From IMG/VR virus record IMGVR_UViG_2728369184_000010, positions 1 through 10,104 of that record: 10,104 bases of DNA; one strand, given 5' to 3'. This DNA is from a virus. Lineage: Duplodnaviria > Heunggongvirae > Uroviricota > Caudoviricetes. The translations under genes and the position numbers were made by a program. Within the stretch, counting starts at the first letter, position 1. Each line of letters begins with the position of its first letter. Shown here piece by piece: positions 1-10,104 of the stretch. The notes beneath the pieces were generated by a model. That model searched no databases and had not been told where the DNA came from. It saw only the letters and a program-made list of their open reading frames with translations.

Positions 1-279
1 ATGGCTGCGCTTGGGCAGTCAATCGGTGGTATATTTCCTTCTGATGAAATAGTCAAAGGCTCTATTAGCGGATATGTCTTCGAGCAATTTGAAATCGCCT
101 GTTACACCTCACTCTTAGCAGCAGCAAAAAATGCCGGTGATACAGCTTCAATTCCAACCATCGAAGCGATTTTAAATGAGGAAAAGCAAATGGCCGACTG
201 GCTGATTCAGCATATTCCGCAAACAACTGAGAAATTTTTAATTCGCTCTGAAACTGATGGCGTAGAAGCGAAGAAATAA
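1..279 (+). CDS. yciE: 3' part of a host gene for a YciE-like (DUF892, ferritin-like) protein; the 5' end lies outside the window
   Basis: Frame is open from base 1 to TAA at 277-279. The translation (...MAALGQSIGGIFPSDEIVKGSISGYVFEQFEIACYTSLLAAAKNAGD...) matches my recollection of the YciE C-terminus. It lies convergent to an ompW 3' remnant, as ompW and yciE do in E. coli K-12. The initial Met is probably internal. Confidence 0.55.
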   Translation: MAALGQSIGGIFPSDEIVKGSISGYVFEQFEIACYTSLLAAAKNAGDTASIPTIEAILNEEKQMADWLIQHIPQTTEKFLIRSETDGVEAKK

Positions 280-302
280 TACCCTTTATACCATGTCCTT
301 AT

Positions 303-330
303 TGACCCCGTATATTACGGGGTCGTTTTT
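303..330. terminator. Terminator hairpin between the convergent yciE and ompW 3' ends, probably bidirectional
   Basis: Perfect 9-bp stem GACCCCGTA / TACGGGGTC with a 3-nt loop, followed by GTTTTT on the + strand and preceded by an A-run on the other side. It sits 24 nt after the yciE stop. Confidence 0.6.
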
Positions 331-338
331 GTGCGGAA

Positions 339-455
339 TTAAAAACGATATCCTGCTGAGAACATAAACACCCACGGATCGAGGCGTACGCTATCGTGTT
401 GCTGTGCACCGCCCAGTTTATAATTGGCGGTGGTATCGATATCCATGTACCACAC
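339..455 (-). pseudogene. ompW: Promoterless 3' fragment of ompW (last ~38 codons), displaced by prophage integration
   Basis: Hand translation of the - strand gives VWYMDIDTTANYKLGGAQQHDSVRLDPWVFMFSAGYRF followed by TAA (stop at + 339-341), which matches the OmpW C-terminus as I recall it. There is an in-frame stop just upstream at 465-467 and no start codon, and similarity to OmpW is lost upstream of about 455-465. It is absent from the supplied ORF track because it has no start. Confidence 0.75.
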
Positions 456-465
456 TGGTAGGTTT

Positions 466-626
466 CAAAAAACACAATAACCAATTGTATTTGAAGCAAA
501 AAACAAGACTTTGAGATGCTTTTTTGTACCTTTTTTTTATGTTTTTAACTGTCTGATTTTATTGAAATCTTTTTTAGTTTTGCAGAAGGGATTTTTTACT
601 TGATTGTAACTTTTTCGTTTTTTTGG
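466..626. other. AT-rich, T-tract-rich non-coding segment at the host/prophage boundary; candidate phage arm of the attachment site
   Basis: Many T5-T8 runs between 520 and 624 and no plausible ORF. It sits immediately next to the point where ompW similarity ends. Lambda-type att arms are AT-rich and carry IHF and Int arm sites, but I could not pick out individual sites by eye. Confidence 0.35.
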
Positions 627-663
627 GGCTAATTGACGCGCAATGCTGGGCGGGGAGCGCACA
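627..663. repeat. Copy A of a 37-bp direct repeat (GGCTAATTGACGCGCAATGCTGGGCGGGGAGCGCACA); the second copy is at 2456-2492
   Basis: Hand alignment: 18 identical bases, a 5-nt block with 2 mismatches, then 14 identical bases. Weaker similarity continues about 28 bp further (about 17 of 28). Both copies follow a T-rich run. Confidence 0.8.
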
Positions 664-767
664 GCCAAAAAAACCGAAATTGACCGCTAATTACTGCCAA
701 TCATCATCGCTCTGATTGAGCGTAAATCATTCAGGTTATTCAGTTCTTCCTTCTGCTCTCGCTGACG

Positions 768-938
768 TCAATAAATCCCATCATTGCGATCAACCTCATC
801 CTTAACCATTGATGCGAGCAGTTCTTCCAGTTTCTGCGCTGACAGCTTTACCTGGTGATCTTCAGCATCTTCCCGGGCTATTGTGGTTCGCGCAGTGGCT
901 GATTTTGCTGACATCACCACAGGGGGCAGACGGACCAT
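768..938 (-). CDS. Small hypothetical protein (56 aa from the internal ATG at 936-938), immediately downstream of the tfa-like gene
   Basis: The ORF-track entry 768-1049 starts at a TTG that lies inside the duplicated tfa-downstream hairpin region. The internal ATG at 936-938 is preceded by GGAGG about 10 nt upstream. The predicted protein is charged and helical (MVRLPPVVMSAKSATARTTIAREDAEDHQVKLSAQKLEELLASMVKDEVDRNDGIY) and I do not recognise it. Confidence 0.3.
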   Translation of the reverse strand: MVRLPPVVMSAKSATARTTIAREDAEDHQVKLSAQKLEELLASMVKDEVDRNDGIY

Positions 939-1000
939 TGAACCAGGGCCTCCGGAACAAATAAGGGCAAAAATAACAACCACTATCGAAAGCTCACAAA

Positions 1001-1172
1001 CTAACCGCAGCACGTTCCTGCATACGACGTGTCTGCGGCATAATCCCAATGATTACTCCCTGACAGGATTTGCAGGCCACTCAATATCAGGTGCAGTTGA
1101 TGTATCAACACGATTCAACAATACCCGATATTTATTCCATGCCTCCAGCAACGATCTTTCTTCCTCCGTTGC
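1001..1172. repeat. Copy 1 of a ~172-bp direct repeat covering the 3' end of tfa plus its downstream hairpin; copy 2 is at 2051-2221
   Basis: Hand alignment of 1001-1172 against 2051-2221 gives roughly 90% identity with one 1-nt indel. The plus-strand shadow ORFs 883-1233 and 2079-2456 share the same peptide ([27 protein letters not shown]). Confidence 0.8.
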
Positions 1173-1322
1173 GATTTCCAGATCTACAGCATCCTGCAGT
1201 GGCGCAATATACTCACTGAATTCCTGGATGTAGAACTGTGTGGTGACGGTCTTCCAGCCATTCGGCTCCTGCTGTATCGAAGCATACCAGGCTATTTCAA
1301 TATCGCTATGCTGCGGCAGCAT
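1053..1322 (-). CDS. tfa: Short tail-fibre-assembly-like protein (89 aa): lambda Tfa C-terminal domain preceded by an unrelated short N-terminus
   Basis: The C-terminal ~50 aa ([51 protein letters not shown]) are near-identical to the lambda Tfa C-terminus as I recall it. The N-terminal ~35 aa have no lambda counterpart. The ATG is at 1320-1322 and the TAA at 1053-1055. Lambda Tfa is about 194 aa, so this is a truncated or chimeric version. Confidence 0.7.
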
Positions 1323-1330
1323 TTAACCCC

Positions 1331-1359
1331 TTGTAATTCATCGCCATAATTGATTTAAT
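1331..1359 (+). promoter_or_regulatory. Candidate sigma-70 promoter for the methyltransferase gene (-35 TTGTAA, 17-nt spacer, -10 TTTAAT)
   Basis: Hexamers read by eye in the 56-bp AT-rich divergent intergenic region between tfa-like (-) and the methyltransferase (+). There is no experimental support, and AT-rich DNA gives many near-matches. Confidence 0.3.
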
Positions 1360-1378
1360 TCACAAATAAAACTATAAC

Positions 1379-2047
1379 ATGGTGAAATTAATGAAAAAAA
1401 ACACAGATGATGGGGCTAAAATTTACACACCACTTACCCTAAAGCTTTATGACTGGTGGGTTTTGGGAGTATCAAATCGGCTTGCATGGGGATGTCCTAC
1501 AAAGGAACACCTTCTTCCACACTTTCTGGAACATTTAGGTAACAACCATCTGGATATTGGTGTTGGAACTGGGTTTTACCTTACTCACGTACCTGAGAGT
1601 AGTCTGATATCTTTAATGGATTTGAACGAAGCTAGCCTGAACGCGGCATCTACAAGGGCTGGGGAATCAAAAATTAAACATAAAATTAGCCATGATGTTT
1701 TTGAACCTTATCCCGCGACGTTACATGGTCAATTTGATTCCATTTCCATGTTTTACCTTCTTCACTGCCTGCCTGGAAATATATCTACAAAAAGCTGTGT
1801 AATACGCAATGCGGCGCAGGCCTTAACTGACGATGGAACTCTATACGGAGCCACAATTCTTGGCGATGGAGTTGTGCACAATAGCTTCGGTCAAAAACTG
1901 ATGCGCATTTACAATCAGAAAGGCATCTTTTCAAACACAAAAGATTCCGAAGAAGGCTTAACACATATACTCTCAGAGCATTTCGAGAATGTTAAAACCA
2001 AGGTTCAAGGTACTGTAGTAATGTTTTCCGCTTCAGGGAAAAAATAG
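1379..2047 (+). CDS. Class I (Rossmann-fold) SAM-dependent methyltransferase, substrate unknown; accessory (moron) gene on the strand opposite to the phage late genes
   Basis: 222-aa ORF with a glycine-rich SAM motif I (HLDIGVGTGFYL), an acidic post-I motif (SLMDLNEAS) and a hydrophobic motif III-like stretch (FDSISMFYLLHCLP). No DPPY/NPPY or PCQ motif typical of DNA methyltransferases. Composition is AT-richer than flanking phage genes (by eye ~40% GC versus over 50%). An alternative start at ATG 1391 (MKKNTDD) has a slightly better upstream GGTG. Confidence 0.75.
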   Translation: MVKLMKKNTDDGAKIYTPLTLKLYDWWVLGVSNRLAWGCPTKEHLLPHFLEHLGNNHLDIGVGTGFYLTHVPESSLISLMDLNEASLNAASTRAGESKIKHKISHDVFEPYPATLHGQFDSISMFYLLHCLPGNISTKSCVIRNAAQALTDDGTLYGATILGDGVVHNSFGQKLMRIYNQKGIFSNTKDSEEGLTHILSEHFENVKTKVQGTVVMFSASGKK

Positions 2048-2050
2048 CAT

Positions 2051-2221
2051 CCAACCGCAGCACGTTCTTGCTTAAGACGTGCTGCGGCATAATCCCAATG
2101 ATTACTCCCTGACAGGGTTCACAGGCCACTCAATATCAGGTGCAGTTGATGTATCAACACGGTTCAGCAACACCCGATACTTTTTCCAGGCTTCCAGCAA
2201 CGAGGTTTCTTCCTCCGTTGC
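2051..2221. repeat. Copy 2 of the ~172-bp tfa 3'-end direct repeat
   Basis: See copy 1 at 1001-1172. This copy begins 4 nt after the methyltransferase stop codon. Confidence 0.8.
2055..2087. terminator. Conserved hairpin downstream of the tfa 3' segments, abutting the methyltransferase stop; possible terminator
   Basis: Perfect 11-bp stem CCGCAGCACGT / ACGTGCTGCGG with an 11-nt loop. The paralogous copy at about 1005-1040 is imperfect (1-nt insertion). There is no U-run directly after the stem on either strand; on the - strand TTTTTT follows after 10 nt. Terminator function is therefore uncertain. Confidence 0.35.
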
Positions 2222-2230
2222 ATATACAGC
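2102..2230 (-). pseudogene. tfa: 3' remnant of a second tfa gene (last ~42 codons, no start codon)
   Basis: Hand translation of the - strand gives [42 protein letters not shown] followed by TAA (stop at + 2102-2104). An in-frame TGA lies immediately upstream and there is no ATG. It matches the lambda Tfa C-terminus. Confidence 0.6.
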
Positions 2231-2240
2231 TCACCTTTTT

Positions 2241-2381
2241 TCACCCACGATTAACCAACAGCCAGACCAGCAGACACGCCACCACCGGCACAGCAAAATC
2301 CATCAGGCTTGCCACATCCCACGCGCGCGGATCAAAACCGCCCCACCACGGCATATTCATTCGCTTGCCATGTCCGAACAT
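2241..2381 (-). CDS. Possible small membrane protein (46 aa), below the ORF-track length cut-off
   Basis: ATG at 2379-2381 and TGA at 2241-2243. The translation MFGHGKRMNMPWWGGFDPRAWDVASLMDFAVPVVACLLVWLLVNRG has a C-terminal hydrophobic stretch compatible with one transmembrane helix. The RBS is weak and the region is GC-rich with open frames on several phases, so this may be spurious. Confidence 0.2.
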   Translation of the reverse strand: MFGHGKRMNMPWWGGFDPRAWDVASLMDFAVPVVACLLVWLLVNRG

Positions 2382-2455
2382 TTCAATCCAGCGATATTAT
2401 GCCTGGGGTGTTCAAGCGCAATGAAGTACGTATTGTATCTTCGCGATTTTTTATA

Positions 2456-2492
2456 GGCTAATTGACGCGCAATTCTGAGCGGGGAGCGCACA
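2456..2492. repeat. Copy B of the 37-bp direct repeat (GGCTAATTGACGCGCAATTCTGAGCGGGGAGCGCACA), about 65 bp downstream of the stf-like stop
   Basis: See copy A at 627-663. Confidence 0.8.
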
Positions 2493-2557
2493 ATCAAACA
2501 GCACAGAATGGATCGCTGATATTTATCCTTTTGTCGGTTTATCAAACAACAAGAGAG

Positions 2558-4387
2558 TCAATAGCGGATTGTCCCTACATCCATTTCTGGCGAATCCACT
2601 AACCAGAAATTATCTGGCTTTACAGCCAGAATGATCCAGGCAGTGTTTGTTGTTGATGGCCAGGAAGGCAGCACATCGTATGCCAGGTTATCGCAAGAAT
2701 CACGATAACCGTACTCATTAAAAAGTGGAGCCATTGCTGCCACAAGATTCACCGCATTCAGCTCATTACCCAGCTTGCGCTCAAAAAGTGCCACACCTGC
2801 CGTTCCTTCCACCCACACGCCACGGCTGTGACCACTATAACCATAATCAGGGTGGTACGGTGTGTAACCCGTGGTTTCCCTCGTACCAAATAAAAAACGC
2901 CCCATATATTTTCGGCACTTAGCCGCTTTCTCAGCATCAATATTGGCAACAAACAATCCGCCCCAGGAAGACTGATCCAGCGCCGCTGCGTTGTCATAGT
3001 GGGTTGAATGAACCCCCTGTCGAAATCGGCCTTCATCTTCCACCCACAGACCTCTGATGATACTCTTTGCCAGCCTGTCAGCCCGCTCACTGAAACCGTC
3101 AAATCCCAGCCGTCCCATCAGTTCAAACAAAAACCAGATATCAACGTTATGCTCCAGTGCGCACCATTCGGCGACGAAAGTTTCATCAAAATTGCCGTCC
3201 ACATAACGCCCCTGCCCCCCTTTATACAGGCCTTCACGCAGGTCGCCTGGTGTGCTCACCAGAAAAGTATCCAGCCAGGCAATGCCTGCCAATAGCTTTT
3301 CTCTGACCCGCGCAGTCTGAGTACCGTCCGGATACTTCTCCAGATAGAAAGCAAGAGCATAATAAACCCATGCCGCATTGCCCAAGCGGTAATAGGTACG
3401 CGGTGACATGGCAGACAGCCTGTTAACAAAAAACTTTACTCCACCGTTTTCATCAACAAGCGCACACAAGCCCGCAACGTATCTTTCTACAGCCTCATGT
3501 CGCTGAACCATCAACGCCAGTGCTGCCAGCGCCTGGTCATACGTGTAACACCGATCTTTCATCACCCTGATCACTTCGGGGTCTGCGTCCTCCGGCATCC
3601 AGTAGCTACGAATGAGCAGTGGAAACTCCAGCGTTGTGATCCACGCATTATCCTCAATCCGAATAAGACGAAACTGTTTTGCTCCCGTCCAGCAACGTCT
3701 GAAATAGAAAGTTCCGTCACTATTCAAATTAGCGTCGCCGTTAAAATACTCTCCGGTTGTATAAGCATACATTTCGACTTTATACTTTTCTGGTTCAGAA
3801 ATATCGCAATATCCGTTAACTGCACCGACATAATTAAAATCGATATTTTCTTTTATTTTTAAAGATATTGATGTATCAACAACCTCGGGTTGTTCCAGTT
3901 TTAACATTGCAGTAGTGCAACGACTCACGATGTCGTCAAAGTTCTCAAAGCGCAAACCGGGAAAACTATCGGCTATTCCCTGCATTTCAGACAGTAACGC
4001 TTCTGCCCTTTTTGTCGCTGATATTGCCACATCTGCACTTCGTCGCGCCTGACTTGTCAAATCTTCAAATCGTTTCACCACATCTGGCTTCAGGTCGCCT
4101 TCGTCGGGGGCAGTCAGAAAATCATTCAGCGTACCTGGTCTGGAACCTTCATAAACGGTAATGGTCCCGGCATGTGAAGGCGGAAAACCTTCAACCAGCA
4201 GGGTGACGCTGTACTGACCATACTCAACATCCATGCTGTAACGTCCAGCTTCATCCGGATTTTCTGAGGCCACCGTGTTCACCACAACCGTTGTGCTGTT
4301 ACGTTTTGCCTTCAGTTGAATAGTGCAGTTCTGTATTGGTTTTCCCGCACCATCTTTCAGCACACCTGAGATTTTTACTGCTGCCAT
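2558..4387 (-). CDS. stf: Side-tail-fibre-like protein: lambda Stf N-terminal tail-attachment domain fused to a divergent ~520-aa C-terminal globular domain (putative receptor-binding or polysaccharide-degrading module)
   Basis: The N-terminal ~90 aa (MAAVKISGVLKDGAGKPIQNCTIQLKAKRNSTTVVVNT...GTITVYEGSRPGTLNDFL) closely match the lambda Stf N-terminus as I recall it. The rest lacks the Ala/Ser/Thr-rich fibre repeats of lambda Stf and is instead rich in aromatic, helix-like segments (TYDQALAALALMV, NAAWVYYALAFYLEKY, WCALEHNVDIWFLFELMGRLG, DNAAALDQSSWGGLF). The position after lom matches lambda stf. The ORF-track start is a GTG at 4393; the ATG at 4385-4387 is preceded by GGGGTGGA and aligns with the lambda start. 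Confidence 0.8.
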   Translation of the reverse strand: MAAVKISGVLKDGAGKPIQNCTIQLKAKRNSTTVVVNTVASENPDEAGRYSMDVEYGQYSVTLLVEGFPPSHAGTITVYEGSRPGTLNDFLTAPDEGDLKPDVVKRFEDLTSQARRSADVAISATKRAEALLSEMQGIADSFPGLRFENFDDIVSRCTTAMLKLEQPEVVDTSISLKIKENIDFNYVGAVNGYCDISEPEKYKVEMYAYTTGEYFNGDANLNSDGTFYFRRCWTGAKQFRLIRIEDNAWITTLEFPLLIRSYWMPEDADPEVIRVMKDRCYTYDQALAALALMVQRHEAVERYVAGLCALVDENGGVKFFVNRLSAMSPRTYYRLGNAAWVYYALAFYLEKYPDGTQTARVREKLLAGIAWLDTFLVSTPGDLREGLYKGGQGRYVDGNFDETFVAEWCALEHNVDIWFLFELMGRLGFDGFSERADRLAKSIIRGLWVEDEGRFRQGVHSTHYDNAAALDQSSWGGLFVANIDAEKAAKCRKYMGRFLFGTRETTGYTPYHPDYGYSGHSRGVWVEGTAGVALFERKLGNELNAVNLVAAMAPLFNEYGYRDSCDNLAYDVLPSWPSTTNTAWIILAVKPDNFWLVDSPEMDVGTIRY

Positions 4388-4397
4388 ATCCACCCCA

Positions 4398-4425
4398 CAA
4401 AAAAGCCCGCCAGAATATGCGGGCT
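4398..4425 (-). terminator. Rho-independent terminator downstream of lom, between lom and the stf-like gene
   Basis: On the - strand: 7-bp GC-rich stem AGCCCGC / GCGGGCT with an 8-nt loop, followed directly by TTTTTT, starting about 16 nt after the lom stop. Confidence 0.55.
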
Positions 4426-4441
4426 GTCATAACACTGCTAA

Positions 4442-5041
4442 TCAGAATTTATAACCGACACCCACGATAAAACCGTCAGTGCGCCAGTCACCACTGCCGG
4501 AGCCTTCATAAGCAATATCAATGGCCACGGATTCGGTCGGGTTAAACTGCACGCCAGCCCCCCACGCCAGAGACGTGTTACTGTGGCGACCATCATCACT
4601 TGCGGTCAGCACATCGTGCGTTTTCCCCTTGTTGTCAGTTACGCGGAGATAATCCCCGGAGAAAGTCGAAACACGGCTGTAAGCCACACCCGCCATCGCA
4701 TATGCGCTGAACCACTCATTCACGCGCACAGATGGCCCCGCCATCATGCTGAACCAGCGGTTACGCACTGAATCTTCATGCCAGCGGGTATCACTGTAAC
4801 GGGTAATCTGGCGATTCTTGTCTCCAGCATAACTGAATGACGTCACCAGCCCCAGCGTGTCCGTAAATTCATAACGGTATTTCACGTTAATGCCCTTCAG
4901 GTCATCGTTGCCGGGCATATCAGTATGGGACTGAATATACCCGGAGCTTAGTGTGGACTGATGCTCTGCTGCACTCGCTGGCGTACCAGCGGCAACCAGC
5001 CAGACTACTGCGGACAGAATAACAGCACATAATTTACGCAT
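4442..5041 (-). CDS. lom: Lom/Ail/PagC-family outer-membrane beta-barrel protein
   Basis: 199-aa ORF with a signal peptide ([24 protein letters not shown]). The C-terminus [23 protein letters not shown] is identical to lambda Lom as I recall it. It sits immediately downstream of J as in lambda. The - strand has GAGAGG upstream of the ATG. Confidence 0.9.
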
Positions 5042-5065
5042 AATTACCTCTCGCTTTTCTGCAAT

Positions 5066-5089
5066 AAAAAAGGCGCCATTTCTGGCGCC
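5066..5089 (-). terminator. Rho-independent terminator between J and lom
   Basis: On the - strand: 7-bp stem GGCGCCA / TGGCGCC with a 4-nt loop, followed by TTTTTT. It lies in the 67-bp J-lom spacer. Confidence 0.6.
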
Positions 5090-5108
5090 CGTATCTGGGT
5101 TATAAAAT

Positions 5109-8100
5109 TCAGCTAATCGTGATGCCTGCAGTGGCTTTCTTCATCACCACAACCAGCAAATCGCTGATACTTGCTGTGGGATACCAACCATTTACCCACC
5201 ATGCTGATACAGAAAACTCCAGTGTCATTACGCCACTGCCTGCAGGCATATCAATAACACCCGTGTATATCAGCGTATTATCCAGAGCCGTTCGGTTATA
5301 AATTTCAGCCCCGTTTTTCTTCACTATCAGGCGGCATGACGAATAAGTATCGCTATTCTCCCGCTCATGTCTGGCACCGCTGAAAGCCACCGCAGGAATA
5401 ACAATTTGCCGGTCAAACGGCTGATCGTCATAAACCCTGACGGTAATGGTCCCTGATGGCCACCGCTCCGGTGCACGGGAGTCCCGGGGGAAAGCTTTGC
5501 CCACTGTTTTAACGAGATCGCCTTCAATCTGGTTCGCGGACAGTTTTCCCAGAACCCGACAGTTCTCGTTAATCGTGACGTTGTTGAGCGTCCCTGAATT
5601 TGCATTCACATTACCGCTGATATCCGCATTTTTAGCGGTCAGCTTTCCGTCCGGTGTCAGGGAAAATGCCGGCGGATTTCCACCGCTGGTAATGGTGGGA
5701 GCCGTCAGGCGTTTCAGGAACACGTCGTTCATGAATATCTGGTTGCCCTGCGCCACAAACATCGGCGTTTCATTCCCGTTTGCCGGGTCAATAAACGCGA
5801 TACGATTGGCGGCAACCAGAAACTGGCTCAGCTTGCCTTCCTCCGTGTCCTCCATGCTGAGGCCAATACCCGCGACATAATGTTTGCCGTCTTTGGTCTG
5901 CTCAATTTTGACGCCCCACATAGCATTCCATTTATCGTTAGCGTCCTTCCACTCTTTCGAAAACTCATCCAGTCTGCTGGCGTTATCCTCCGTCAGGTCG
6001 ACTTTTTTCAGCAGCTCTTTACCGAGATGGGATTCGGTTATCTTGCCTTTGAAAAAATCCAGGTAACCTTCCGCATCATCGCTCGCCCGACCGACGGCCT
6101 CCACGAATGCCGATTTGCCAACGGTGTTCACACTGCGGATATAAAAGTAATAATCATGGCCCGGTTTGATATTGATACTGGCGGCTATCCAGTACAGCCC
6201 CGTGCCAAGGTAGCGGGCTGTGGTTTCAACCTGCCTGATATCGGTAATCCGCGTTTCCGAGAACCAGAACTCAAACTGTACCGTCGGATCATAAACCGCA
6301 AGATGCGGCGTGGCAGTTATCTGAAAATAGCCCGGCGTCAGCTCAATCCGCGACGGCGCTGCCGGGGCGGCAATCCGGAACGATACCGATGCCGGATCGC
6401 CCTGCTGCCCCCAGGCATTTGCCGCCCGGACTGTCAGCCTGTAGTTTCCCAGCGCCAGTTGCGTGAAGCGGTATGTGGTTTCCGTCGTCCGGGCCGTGCT
6501 GACCAGCCGCTCACTGCCGTCATCCGCTGCCACGGTCAGGCGAAGCATAAAGCTCACACCCTTCACCACCTTCGGCGTATCCCAGCGCGCCAGCACCTGG
6601 TATTCCCCGCTGTCTGCGGTGACTTCGGCAGTCAGATGCTGCACTGCTGGCGGTGTGACCCCGTTCACCGTGCCGCTCTGGTCGCCGTCAAAGTGCGCCC
6701 CGTTATCCACGATGGCCTCTTTTTCCGGTACATGCTGCACGGCGGTGATGGCATACGTGCCGTTGTCGTTCTCACGGATACTCACGCAGCGGAACAGGCG
6801 CTGGCGCAGCGTCGGCAGCTTCAGCCCCCACACGCTGTATTCAGCAACGCCGTCAGGAACACGGCTCACTTTTACCTTCACGCCGTCGGTGACGGACTGG
6901 ATCTCCACGCTGACCGGATTGCCACTTCCGTCAACCAGGCTTATCAGCGTGGTACCGGAGGATGGCAGCGTGATTTCACGGTCGAGCGTCAGCGTCCGGG
7001 TCTGGCTGTTCACCGCCAGCACACGACCACCGGTGCTGATACCGGCATAGTCATCATCACAGATTTCAATGACATCGCCCGGCACATGGCGAAGCCCTTC
7101 GGCACCCACGCTGAAGTCCACGGTCTGCGTTTCCAGCAGTTCCGTTTTAATCAGCCACAGCCCGGCTCTGTGTGCCTGCCCCCGACTGGTACAGCCAAAA
7201 GCATCCATCTTCGTGACGTTACGACCGTAACGGGCAATGGCCTGCGTGTCCTCCACAAGCTCTGTCGCCGTCTCCCAGCCATTATTCGGGTCAATCCAGT
7301 TCACCTCAACGGCATTATGGCGGTCCTTCAGGGCGCTGAAGCTGTAGCGGAACGGCGCGCCATCATCCGGCATCACCACATTACTGCGGTTATAGGTCCA
7401 CACCTTATCCGACCGTCGGTCCTGCACGAACGTCAGCGTCTGCCCGTTCCATACCGGCATACAGCGCATCGCCGAGCAGAAATCACTGAGCACATCCCAC
7501 GCCTTGCGCTGCGTGGTCATGTACGCATTACAGGTGATGCGCGGCTCCGTGCCACCAAAGCCATCCGGCACCGACTGGTCGCAATTCTGGCCGATGACAT
7601 ACAGCGCCCATTTATCCACATCCGCCGCACCAAGACGTTTCCCCATGCCGTAGCGCGGATGGGTCAGCATATCCCACAGACACCAGGCCATGTTGTTGCT
7701 GTATGCTGGCTTAAACGTTCCGTCCCAGATACCGCTGTATTGCCGCGTCTGCGGGTTATAGTTCGACGGCACCTGCAGAATACGCCCGCGAAGATGATAA
7801 TTACGGCTCACCTGCTGACTGCCGAACTGTTCCGACTCCACCTGCACGCCGACCAGTGCCGTGTTCGGGTAGCACTGTTTCACATCGATGATTTCGGTGT
7901 ATGACGACCAGAGCGTTTTGTTCTGCAGCTGGTCTGTGGTGCTGTCCGGCGTCATCCTGCGCATCCGGATATTAAACGGGCGCGGCGGCAGGTTATCCAC
8001 CACTACCGATGCCAGATACTGCGAGGTGGTTTTGCCCTTAATGGTGATGTCTTTTTCCGTCACCCAGCCACCGTTACGTTGTATCTGAACCAGCAGGCGG

Positions 8101-8504
8101 ACTTCCGATGGATTCCGGTCCCCTTTTGAGGTGGTTTCCACCAGAGCCTGCACACCGAAGGTAAAACGCAGACGGTCGATGTTTGCAGACGTGATGGTCC
8201 GGATGATCGGCGTGTCGTATTTCACTTCCGTACCCAGCACCTTCTCGGAGCCGGAGGATTCAAATCCCTCCGGCGGAGTCTGCTCCTGCTCACCAGCCAG
8301 GAACACCACCGTGACACCGGCGATGTTGGTATTCCCCTCACTGTCCAGCACCGGCGTACTGTTCAGCAGCACGCTTTTTAATCCATCCACCGGACCTTCA
8401 ACCGGCCCTTCACTGATGGCATCAATCACACTCAGCAACTGCGTGGATTTCAGGTTGTCCTTCGCTTCGCGCGGGGTATGCCCCTTACTGCTGCCTTTAC
8501 CCAT
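5109..8504 (-). CDS. J: Tail tip / host-specificity protein J (central tail fibre); lambda-like except for the C-terminal ~140 aa
   Basis: 1131-aa ORF. The N-terminus [34 protein letters not shown]... and most of the length match lambda gpJ as I recall it. The - strand has GGAG upstream of the ATG. Gene order is L-K-I-J-lom. Confidence 0.95.
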
Positions 8505-8526
8505 TCGTCACGCTCCATAAACGACA

Positions 8527-8546
8527 AAACCGCCCGCAGGCGGTTT
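8527..8546 (-). other. Stem-loop in the I-J intergenic spacer
   Basis: 8-bp stem AAACCGCC / GGCGGTTT with loop CGCA (+ strand reading), followed on the - strand by a short T-rich run just upstream of the J ribosome-binding site. Confidence 0.3.
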
Positions 8547-8564
8547 CACATAAAATGTTTTGCA

Positions 8565-9197
8565 TCAGCGACCAATCACCACAACCTGACCACCATCCCC
8601 TTCGTCTGCCGTGCTGATCTCCTGAGAAACCACGCGAGACCCCACGCGCATTTCCCCGTACAGAACAGGCAGAACATTGCCCTGGGCAACCATGTTATCC
8701 AGTGAGGAGAAATAGGTGTTCTGCTTACCGTTATCCGTTGTCTGTGTACGGGGAGTTCTGGCTTTCGGTGCCAGCATCTGCGCCACANNNNNNNNNNNNN
8801 NNNNNNNNNNNGCTGCCCCCCATGCTGCAAGGGTGGCTCCGGCGGTAAAGAATGATCCGGCAATGGCGGCAGCCCCCAGGACAATCTGGAATACGCCACC
8901 TGACTTGGCCCCGGCGACTCTGGGAACAATATGAATCACAGCGCCATCAGGCAGAGTCTCATGTAACTGCGCCGTTAACCCGGACGTGCTGACGTCCCGC
9001 CCGGCAATCCGTACCTGATACCAGCCGTCGCTCAGTTTCTGACGAAACGCCGGGAGCTGTGTGGCCAGTGCCCGGATGGCTTCAGCCCCCGTTTTCACAC
9101 GAAGGTCGATGCGGCGACCAAATCGTTGTAAATCCCCGTAAAGGCAGATGCGCGCCATGCCCGGTGACGCCAGAGGGAGTGTGTGCGTCGCTGCCAT
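8565..9197 (-). CDS. I: Tail assembly protein I; coding sequence interrupted by a 24-N gap
   Basis: MAATHTLPLASPGMARICLYGDLQRFGRRIDLRVKTGAEAIRALATQ... matches lambda gpI. It overlaps the 3' end of K by 103 nt in another frame, as in lambda, and the 60-nt I-J spacer is lambda-like. The N-run falls in the Gly/Ala-rich region. Confidence 0.9.
   Translation of the reverse strand: MAATHTLPLASPGMARICLYGDLQRFGRRIDLRVKTGAEAIRALATQLPAFRQKLSDGWYQVRIAGRDVSTSGLTAQLHETLPDGAVIHIVPRVAGAKSGGVFQIVLGAAAIAGSFFTAGATLAAWGAXXXXXXXXXVAQMLAPKARTPRTQTTDNGKQNTYFSSLDNMVAQGNVLPVLYGEMRVGSRVVSQEISTADEGDGGQVVVIGR
8788..8811. other. Run of 24 N (assembly gap or masked bases) inside gene I
   Basis: Seen directly. Lambda gpI has about 22 residues where this window shows about 9 X, so the N-run probably under-represents the true length. 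Confidence 0.95.
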
Positions 9198-9838
9198 TTG
9201 TCGGTGTACCTCTCTCGTTTGCTCAGTTGTTCAGGAATATGGTGCAGCAGCTCGCCGTCGCCGCAGTAAATTGCGGCGTGATTCGGCACTGATGAACCAA
9301 AACAGCACAGCAGCACATCGCCCGGCTGTGCCGCTGACAACGGCACCTGATACAGCCCCGTCGCCTCCAGATTATCCAGATAGAGATTCTGGCCGTTACG
9401 CCACCAGTCATCCTCACGATAAAAGTCCGGCATCTCAATCCCCGCCAGATGATAAGCATCCCGGAACAGTGTGTAACAGTCCGTCACACCGTGCTCAAAG
9501 CGCCGCCCGGTGAGATGCGGCACACAGCGGAACTTATGAATCGTCCCCCGGCAGACCAGCCACCACGGCAAATCACTCTGCACCTGCAGCCGCCGGTCGG
9601 CCTCACTCAGCCAGGGCAGACCACCGGGGTGGCTGTGGACCAGCGCCACAATCTCACCCTGCATTTCTGCCTGCAGCCAGTCTTCCGGCGACATACGGAA
9701 ATACGCCTCCGGCTCACCGGAGATATTCACGCAGGGGAAATATCTTTCCCCCTCCGGCGTGCTTACCACGAAGCCGCACGACTCCGCTGGCGCACATCGC
9801 CGGGCGTGCGCCAGAATCGCTGATTCTGTCTGTGTCAT
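9095..9838 (-). CDS. K: Tail tip assembly protein K with an N-terminal MPN/JAMM motif and a C-terminal NlpC/P60-like Cys/His region
   Basis: 247-aa ORF starting 6 nt after the L stop. JAMM motif HSHPGGLPWLSEAD (H-x-H-x7-S-x2-D). NlpC/P60-like Cys (VTDCYTLF) and His residues (NHAAIYCG...LLHH). The classical lambda annotation may begin at the internal Met49 (MSPEDWLQ, about 199 aa), but the upstream segment is needed for a complete MPN domain. Confidence 0.9.
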   Translation of the reverse strand: MTQTESAILAHARRCAPAESCGFVVSTPEGERYFPCVNISGEPEAYFRMSPEDWLQAEMQGEIVALVHSHPGGLPWLSEADRRLQVQSDLPWWLVCRGTIHKFRCVPHLTGRRFEHGVTDCYTLFRDAYHLAGIEMPDFYREDDWWRNGQNLYLDNLEATGLYQVPLSAAQPGDVLLCCFGSSVPNHAAIYCGDGELLHHIPEQLSKRERYTDKWQRRTHSLWRHRAWRASAFTGIYNDLVAASTFV

Positions 9839-9843
9839 GGGAT

Positions 9844-10104
9844 TTACTGCGAAAGTTTGTTAATGGAAAGGAAGCCGCCAAAGTTGCCGACGTTATTGCG
9901 GAACTTACAACCGCTCAGGCATTTGCTGCATTTATCCTTCGTGATATCGGACGTTGGCTGGTCATATTCATCCGCGACAGCAGGACCGCTATAACCGCAC
10001 TCGTCACCGCGATAGGTCCAGGTGCAGGTGTTGGCCAGCATGATTCGTCCCGGAAAAACAGCGCCGTCCGTTTCCGTCGGCGTGGACAGTACAAAAGAGG
10101 CACT
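9844..10104 (-). CDS. L: Tail tip protein L, C-terminal part; the 5' end lies beyond the window
   Basis: Frame is open to the window edge and ends ...CSKCLSGCKFRNNVGNFGGFLSINKLSQ followed by TAA at 9844-9846. It sits immediately upstream of K as in lambda. The Cys-rich C-terminus is typical of gpL. Confidence 0.85.
   Translation of the reverse strand, partial: SASFVLSTPTETDGAVFPGRIMLANTCTWTYRGDECGYSGPAVADEYDQPTSDITKDKCSKCLSGCKFRNNVGNFGGFLSINKLSQ

Follow-up and report, generated by a model that had tools for sequence, protein, structure and literature searches.

The startless ompW fragment beside yciE marks the attR of a lambda-like PPompW prophage in Escherichia coli

INTRODUCTION

What does a startless piece of ompW, lying next to yciE at the edge of a viral sequence, represent? 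The question arises from a stretch of 10,104 nucleotides, positions 1 to 10,104 of the IMG/VR tailed-phage record IMGVR_UViG_2728369184_000010, which we refer to in its entirety as the window. A first-pass annotation, made from the letters alone, read the first 466 bases as the junction between host DNA and a prophage integrated in the 3′ end of ompW. It also predicted that the other end of the prophage would carry the 5′ part of ompW fused to a 3′ end supplied by the phage, next to an integrase gene.

Phages that integrate into the 3′ ends of genes are well known from tRNA genes, P4 and P22 being examples. The attP of such a phage carries a copy of the gene end, which restores the target gene at attL, beside int, and a fragment of the original gene remains at attR. 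In lambda-type prophages, the tail end is the end opposite to int.

Many STEC genome papers list ompW as a prophage or Stx-phage insertion site, and the site and a group of prophages that occupy it, PPompW, are described by Nakamura et al. (PMC8112680), where the attL and attR of the ompW prophage are given as 121 bp. Here, we follow the junction to the base, locate the opposite end of the prophage in finished genomes, and consider what integration does to OmpW.

RESULTS

Host sequence ends at base 457

The left end of the window is colinear with the ompW–yciE region of K-12, as the first-pass annotation held. Positions 1–457 match MG1655 (locus coordinates 2997–2541) at 99.1% identity, with four mismatches and no gaps. 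In a set of 5,426 complete E. coli genomes, the match to unoccupied sites covers exactly bases 1–457, at 97–99.8%. Host identity thus stops at base 457, within the interval of about 455–465 that had been estimated, and the prophage boundary is 457/458. Beyond it the sequence is unrelated to the host locus and, as anticipated, AT-rich, with a GC content of 25.9% over 458–600 versus 44% over 1–457. The features of the host flank are as follows.

1–279, plus strand: 3′ part of yciE, the last 92 codons and stop; flanking chromosome, outside the prophage (Pfam DUF892, E = 1.8e-19)
303–325, plus strand: GC-rich hairpin of 10 pairs with a T-run, tail TTTTTGTG, between the convergent yciE and ompW
339–455, minus strand: the host's own ompW 3′ end, displaced, with 38 codons and stop, identified by translation (119/119 nt aligned to K-12 ompW, 99.2%)

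The YciE fragment corresponds to residues 77–168 of the K-12 protein, with one substitution. In both MS 21-1 (see below) and the prophage-free strain E22, yciE is annotated as a pseudogene with a frameshift and an internal stop, at locus coordinates 48696–49201 and 1274–1779, respectively; the defect lies upstream of window base 1 and has no relation to the prophage. The hairpin at 303–325 has the same sequence in K-12 and E22. This predicted terminator is native to the host locus and is kept beside the displaced ompW fragment.

The ompW fragment itself is as short as first described. Read on the minus strand it gives VWYMDIDTTANYKLGGAQQHDSVRLDPWVFMFSAGYRF and then a stop, matching OmpW over its 38 C-terminal residues. 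The fragment lacks a start codon, and its frame is closed by a stop three codons upstream. In the RefSeq annotations of E275a and MS 21-1 it appears as a pseudogene, partial and of the 'OmpW family'. It is a dead remnant. No second ompW-like stretch was found in the window beyond chance 12-mers, and an Rfam scan of the whole window at gathering thresholds returned no matches.

The other end carries a full-length chimeric ompW and the integrase

E. coli MS 21-1, isolated from a human colon, has a finished chromosome to which the window is 99.99% identical (one mismatch in 8,787 bases and one in 1,293). The annotated order there is yciC, ompW (212 aa), integrase, excisionase, about 45 kb of phage genes, the ompW fragment and yciE; E275a has the same layout. 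The ompW at the far junction of MS 21-1 has a 5′ part of host DNA, and its last ~90 bases are of a phage type, unlike the host version. The distance from the end of the integrase gene to the ompW stop codon is 56 bases. Thus both parts of the prediction for the other end held: a full-length chimeric ompW lies 45.8 kb away, and the integrase and excisionase genes directly adjoin it. Two observations had been named in advance as fatal to the proposal, namely lack of a match between the fragment and ompW, and an intact ompW immediately adjacent with no second junction elsewhere. The fragment does match ompW, and the intact gene stands at a second junction.

A truncated ompW could also arise by deletion or be an artefact of draft assembly, and the window does contain a run of 24 N (8788–8811). 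This run lies in a tail assembly gene and replaces 63 bases of finished MS 21-1, which suggests that a draft assembly, with a gap in its scaffold, was the source of the window. It is, however, 8 kb from the junction, which the finished MS 21-1 chromosome reproduces exactly; moreover, window 1–1400 is matched over 80% or more of its length in at least 487 complete genomes. The finished chromosome and these hundreds of other genomes refute the deletion or artefact explanation, to which we give next to no credence.

The integrase (376 aa) contains an arm-binding domain (Arm-DNA-bind_1, PF09003, E = 7.1e-22) and a catalytic domain (Phage_integrase, PF00589, E = 1.3e-16), and the adjacent gene encodes an excisionase of the Exc family (PF07825, E = 1.3e-7, 31.9 bits against a cut-off of 23). 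The following features of a lambda-type Int/Xis module are present: a tyrosine recombinase with an arm domain at the junction, an adjacent excisionase gene, a repeated core and an attP in a phage genome (see below). According to PMC8112680, PPompW prophages are defined by an integrase with >90% identity over >90% of its length, the named reference being EC112648_1574. Our comparison was made instead with IntE of PPompW_132418 (LC567822), to which the integrase is identical at 376/376 positions. The insertion is also of the PPompW kind, with ompW and yciE split, a 121-bp duplication at attL and attR, and ompW and its remnant 45.8 kb apart in MS 21-1.

Anatomy of the attachment site

The junction comprises the following elements.

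337–457: 121-bp imperfect duplication, host version at attR and phage version at attL (blastn against MS 21-1 locus 2816–2696, 82%)
430–457: exact 28-bp common core, GTGGTATCGATATCCATGTACCACACTG, the sole stretch identical in attB, attP, attL and attR
458–590: phage P arm of attR, AT-rich (26% GC), contiguous with the phage-type ompW end in the attP of phage 204576
578–588: candidate arm-type integrase site, TTTTGCAGAAG, which closes the P arm

Window 337–457 coincides with a 121-bp repeat_region in GenBank LC567822, labelled 'duplication due to insertion'. The two versions of this segment are unevenly alike.

337–384: host and phage copies identical at 45/48 positions
385–429: identical at 23/45
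430–457: identical at 28/28

A core common to both junctions had been expected, and the 28-bp stretch, which contains the dyad GTGGTA...TACCAC, has that distribution. It occurs as a direct repeat in MS 21-1 (locus coordinates 2696 and 48518, 45,822 bp apart) and in E275a (1430 and 49681), and once each in the unoccupied loci of K-12 and E22.

We aligned four sites: attR from the window, attL from MS 21-1, attB from K-12 and E22, and attP from Escherichia phage 204576 (CP025907). This phage, a separate record of 31.5 kb, contiguously covers a synthetic attP, built by joining the two phage-side halves at the core (554/554 nt, 97.5%), and matches window 337–2222 at 98.3%. On the left side of the core, attR agrees with attB and attL with attP; on the right side the pairing is reversed, attR agreeing with attP and attL with attB. 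Because the core is the only stretch identical in all four sites, and because the pattern is reciprocal on its two sides, the crossover is placed inside 430–457.

The divergent phage of DG342-2 may allow this interval to be narrowed. At positions 435 and 453, its attL reads G and C, its attR A and G. Given a K-12-like host allele (A, C), these markers would place the exchange within 436–452. This mapping comes from one lysogen and is no more than suggestive, because position 453 is polymorphic (C/G) and G is also found there at both junctions of strain 463, whose attR remnant is of a different type. We tried strain 463 for the same purpose and set it aside, as its alleles cannot be assigned: the remnant is of a longer type and the locus lacks yciEFG. 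In this strain (NZ_CP183105.1, locus coordinates 27400–27640), the ompW remnant directly abuts trpA, with yciE, yciF and yciG missing, and its loop-coding part is 15 bases longer. The history of the ompW locus is different between lineages.

Could the phage have entered by homologous recombination over its ompW-like 121-bp segment, instead of by integrase at a defined core? The blocks of similarity at 337–384 (45/48) and 430–457 (28/28) are long enough in principle for a rare RecA-dependent exchange. Yet five independent lysogens (the window, E275a, RM8352, DG342-2 and P-EibA) have an attR remnant that is host-type as far as the core, so that exchange occurred at the core end in each and never in the 337–384 block; this pattern fits exchange at the core better than at any other part of the 121-bp homology. 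Genes for a lambda-type integrase and excisionase adjoin attL, and divergent phages have conserved arms on either side of the core but differ elsewhere. We regard entry by homologous recombination as very improbable; both it and the artefact explanation are effectively excluded.

Arms and candidate integrase sites

The attR arms of O121 strain RM8352, DG342-2 and P-EibA resemble that of the window from the core to about 590, after which similarity is lost. In this alignment of the window with three otherwise unrelated ompW prophages, GTTTTGCAG is invariant.

On the int side, the interval between the int stop and the stop of the phage-borne ompW contains a hairpin, CTGGTCAT-TTG-ATGACCAG, and tandem copies of the 11-bp sequence TTTTGCAGAGG. 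Four copies lie next to int in the attL of MS 21-1 (locus coordinates 2817–2862), and three are found in phage 204576, PPompW_132418, E. albertii and strains 119, 463 and AZ162. One copy with a single mismatch, oriented alike, lies at 578–588, at a distance of 120 bases from the core. In the whole window, this is the one TTTTGCAGAGG-like match, against 0.2 expected by chance. The pattern of conservation points to the TTTTGCAGAGG repeats as putative arm-type Int sites, with the copy at 578–588 the outermost, and the functional attR probably extends to about 590. The junction as first described, 1–466, is correct to a few bases, and only its extent needs adjusting: the duplicated att segment is 337–457, the core 430–457, and attR probably reaches ~590. 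No exact match to the IHF consensus WATCAANNNNTTR occurs in window 400–760 or in attL (exact matches only).

Phage genes beyond the junction

Past the junction, the window holds the tail end of a lambda-like prophage, in reverse order.

687–1322, minus strand: decayed DUF4376 gene and tail-fibre assembly gene
1379–2047, plus strand: SAM-dependent methyltransferase; phrog_2132, function unknown
after the methyltransferase: second tail-fibre assembly fragment
2558–4393, minus strand: tail fibre of 611 aa, an uninterrupted ORF matching phrog_4128 end to end
4442–5041: Lom
5109–8504: J tail-tip protein
after J: tail assembly proteins

The C-terminal ~470 aa of the tail fibre have no Pfam domain, and at its place RefSeq shows, in MS 21-1 and E275a, only an N-terminal pseudogene of 139 codons. 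Two pairs of direct repeats are present in this region. One pair (1033–1172 and 2082–2221, 91% identical) consists of 3′ fragments of tail-fibre assembly genes and brackets the methyltransferase gene; the other (603–691 and 2432–2520, 75% identical) is an 89-base non-coding element downstream of two tail-fibre-type genes. The methyltransferase gene looks like cargo inserted by recombination between tail-fibre cassettes.

The state of this end bears on a second alternative, in which the junction is real but belongs to a fixed, non-excisable cryptic remnant, and 337–590 is a scar that no longer has a function. The interval from 687 to 2230 does hold pseudogenes and duplicated pieces of genes, this end of the prophage carries decayed genes (a DUF4376 pseudogene and truncated tail-fibre assembly fragments), RefSeq lists several 'partial' features there, and the junction is inherited in many lineages. 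Against this, int, xis and the replication, lysis, and complete head and tail gene sets of MS 21-1 are annotated as intact. Furthermore, a near-identical attP exists in the separate 31.5-kb record of phage 204576, and this phage matches 337–2222 at 98.3%, so that the 'decayed' end region travels with the phage. Finally, attP PCR products are reported for the ompW prophage of an O145:H28 strain, 12E129, in PMC8112680. We infer from sequence that the MS 21-1 prophage itself may be able to excise, and we consider the cryptic-remnant explanation unlikely.

The phage rewrites a segment near the end of OmpW

Compared with K-12, the reconstituted OmpW of MS 21-1 has seven changes in the part encoded by the phage: N185K, L188S, G190V, A191T, Q192T, Q193V and H194K. 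All fall within residues 185–194. A further difference, F20Y, is in the host-encoded signal peptide. Five versions of the segment are listed here.

Host (K-12, E22): NYKLGGAQQHDS
MS 21-1 and strains 119, 463 and AZ162: KYKSGVTTVKDS
E275a: KYKSGVNTVKDS
DG342-2: SYKFNGTPVKDA
FHI_NMBU_10: KYKSDGRKLAKGSYSDN, 5 residues longer

Phage 204576 and E. albertii NBRC 107761 have DNA for the KYKSGVTTVKDS version as well. Among the at least four versions supplied by phages, variation is confined to the segment between the last two beta-strands, and the neighbouring strands are invariant. We searched for DNA encoding AKYKSGVTTVKDSV in one genome per species, covering 185,579 species, and the sole match was E. 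albertii NBRC 107761; there it adjoins the PPompW-type integrase and is not in the native ompW.

In this E. albertii genome (locus coordinates 2344–3700), the integrase is identical at 376/377 positions, stop included, and alongside it are three arm repeats, the core and an ompW end of the phage type. ompW is absent past the core, where weak similarity extends over only ~12 residues. The location is perhaps a secondary site, or else a prophage-in-prophage site such as PMC8112680 describes.

In eight-stranded barrels, both termini face the periplasm, so the connection between strands 7 and 8 should be a surface loop, the fourth, and this is where the phage-rewritten segment would lie. Colicin S4 uses OmpW, which is such a barrel, as its primary receptor (PMC2649078). 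Integration might then not be neutral for OmpW, but a form of lysogenic conversion that alters recognition by colicin S4 or by OmpW-dependent phages; we put this forward as a speculation with poor odds. It may also be that the variation is neutral change in an unconstrained segment. We found no discussion in the literature of seven OmpW residues being rewritten by a phage end.

Occupancy of the site

Among the 5,426 complete E. coli genomes, the ompW site is uninterrupted in 3,440. An int–ompW junction, scored at ≥80% of a 321-base attL query, is present in 1,729 (~32%), and the window-type attR with its adjacent cargo, scored at ≥80% of window 1–1400, in 487. Any match at all to the K-12 attB query is seen in 4,738 genomes, and about 690 have none. 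These counts are approximate, and the site categories do not sum exactly.

DISCUSSION

The junction at the left end of the window is an ordinary attR of a PPompW prophage, of a kind already described. More specifically, positions 337–590 are almost certainly the attR of a 45.8-kb lambda-like prophage, and comparison of the four att sites indicates that it was made by integrase from attP and an attB in the 3′ end of ompW. The attP of the phage reads, in order, int, a hairpin, three or four tandem copies of TTTTGCAGAGG, a phage version of the terminal ~117 bases of ompW, the 28-bp core and an arm rich in AT. At attL, exchange within the core joins host ompW codons 1 to ~174 to the phage-supplied 3′ end, so that a full 212-aa OmpW is still encoded there. 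The host's own 38 codons, its native terminator and yciE are left at attR, beside the tail-fibre end of the prophage. The phage hairpin is probably a terminator for both ompW and int.

Among the closest known systems is PPompW of STEC and EPEC (PMC8112680; LC567818–LC567841), which has the same target gene and the same 121-bp att duplication. PPompW_132418 has the same attL sequence as MS 21-1, except that MS 21-1 has one extra 11-bp repeat. PPompW and the window prophage are alike in having a lambda-like genome, with the tail-fibre end on the yciE side. Several differences are also evident. The host of PPompW is O145:H28, whereas MS 21-1 is a commensal-type strain from the human colon. The O145 PPompW records match only the int-side half of the attP query, which indicates that their P arm is more divergent. 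On the attR side, the cargo is a type III effector locus in PPompW and a SAM-methyltransferase gene here. The 21-bp 'attB-in-prophage' site, as given in PMC8112680, is absent from the window, with up to three mismatches allowed.

P-EibA of E. coli ECOR-9 (AF151091) is another relative. Its record ends in the same junction of yciE, ompW remnant and core, and it has in common with the window a conserved P-arm block up to TTTTGCAG. Beyond ~130 bp from the core its phage DNA is unrelated, and it carries the immunoglobulin-binding gene eibA. We found no literature linking P-EibA to ompW.

The likeness to lambda includes a tyrosine integrase with an arm-binding domain, an Exc-family excisionase, int at attL with the tail-fibre or b-region end at attR, tandem repeats on the int side (compare P′1–P′3) with a lone copy ~120 bp out on the other arm (compare P1/P2), and a short identical core with dyad symmetry. 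In other respects the systems differ. The candidate arm motif TTTTGCAGAGG is unrelated to the arm motif of lambda, and no exact IHF consensus is found here. Lambda targets the gal–bio intergenic region, whereas the target here is inside the protein-coding gene ompW, and as a consequence the phage carries a gene-end replacement of ~90 bases between the core and the arm repeats. The arrangement recalls the tRNA-gene integrators, with the difference that the restored part is protein-coding and the copy is unfaithful: seven OmpW residues are changed or, in one lineage, five are added.

These results fix one end of a 45.8-kb prophage to the base, and they account for the pseudogene beside yciE that annotation pipelines call a 'partial OmpW family protein'. 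In such lysogens, ompW is a host–phage chimera and not a disrupted gene. More generally, ompW is a common point of lambdoid insertion in E. coli, occupied in about one-third of complete genomes; and in pathogenic lineages, according to PMC8112680, the prophages at this site themselves receive Shiga-toxin phages.
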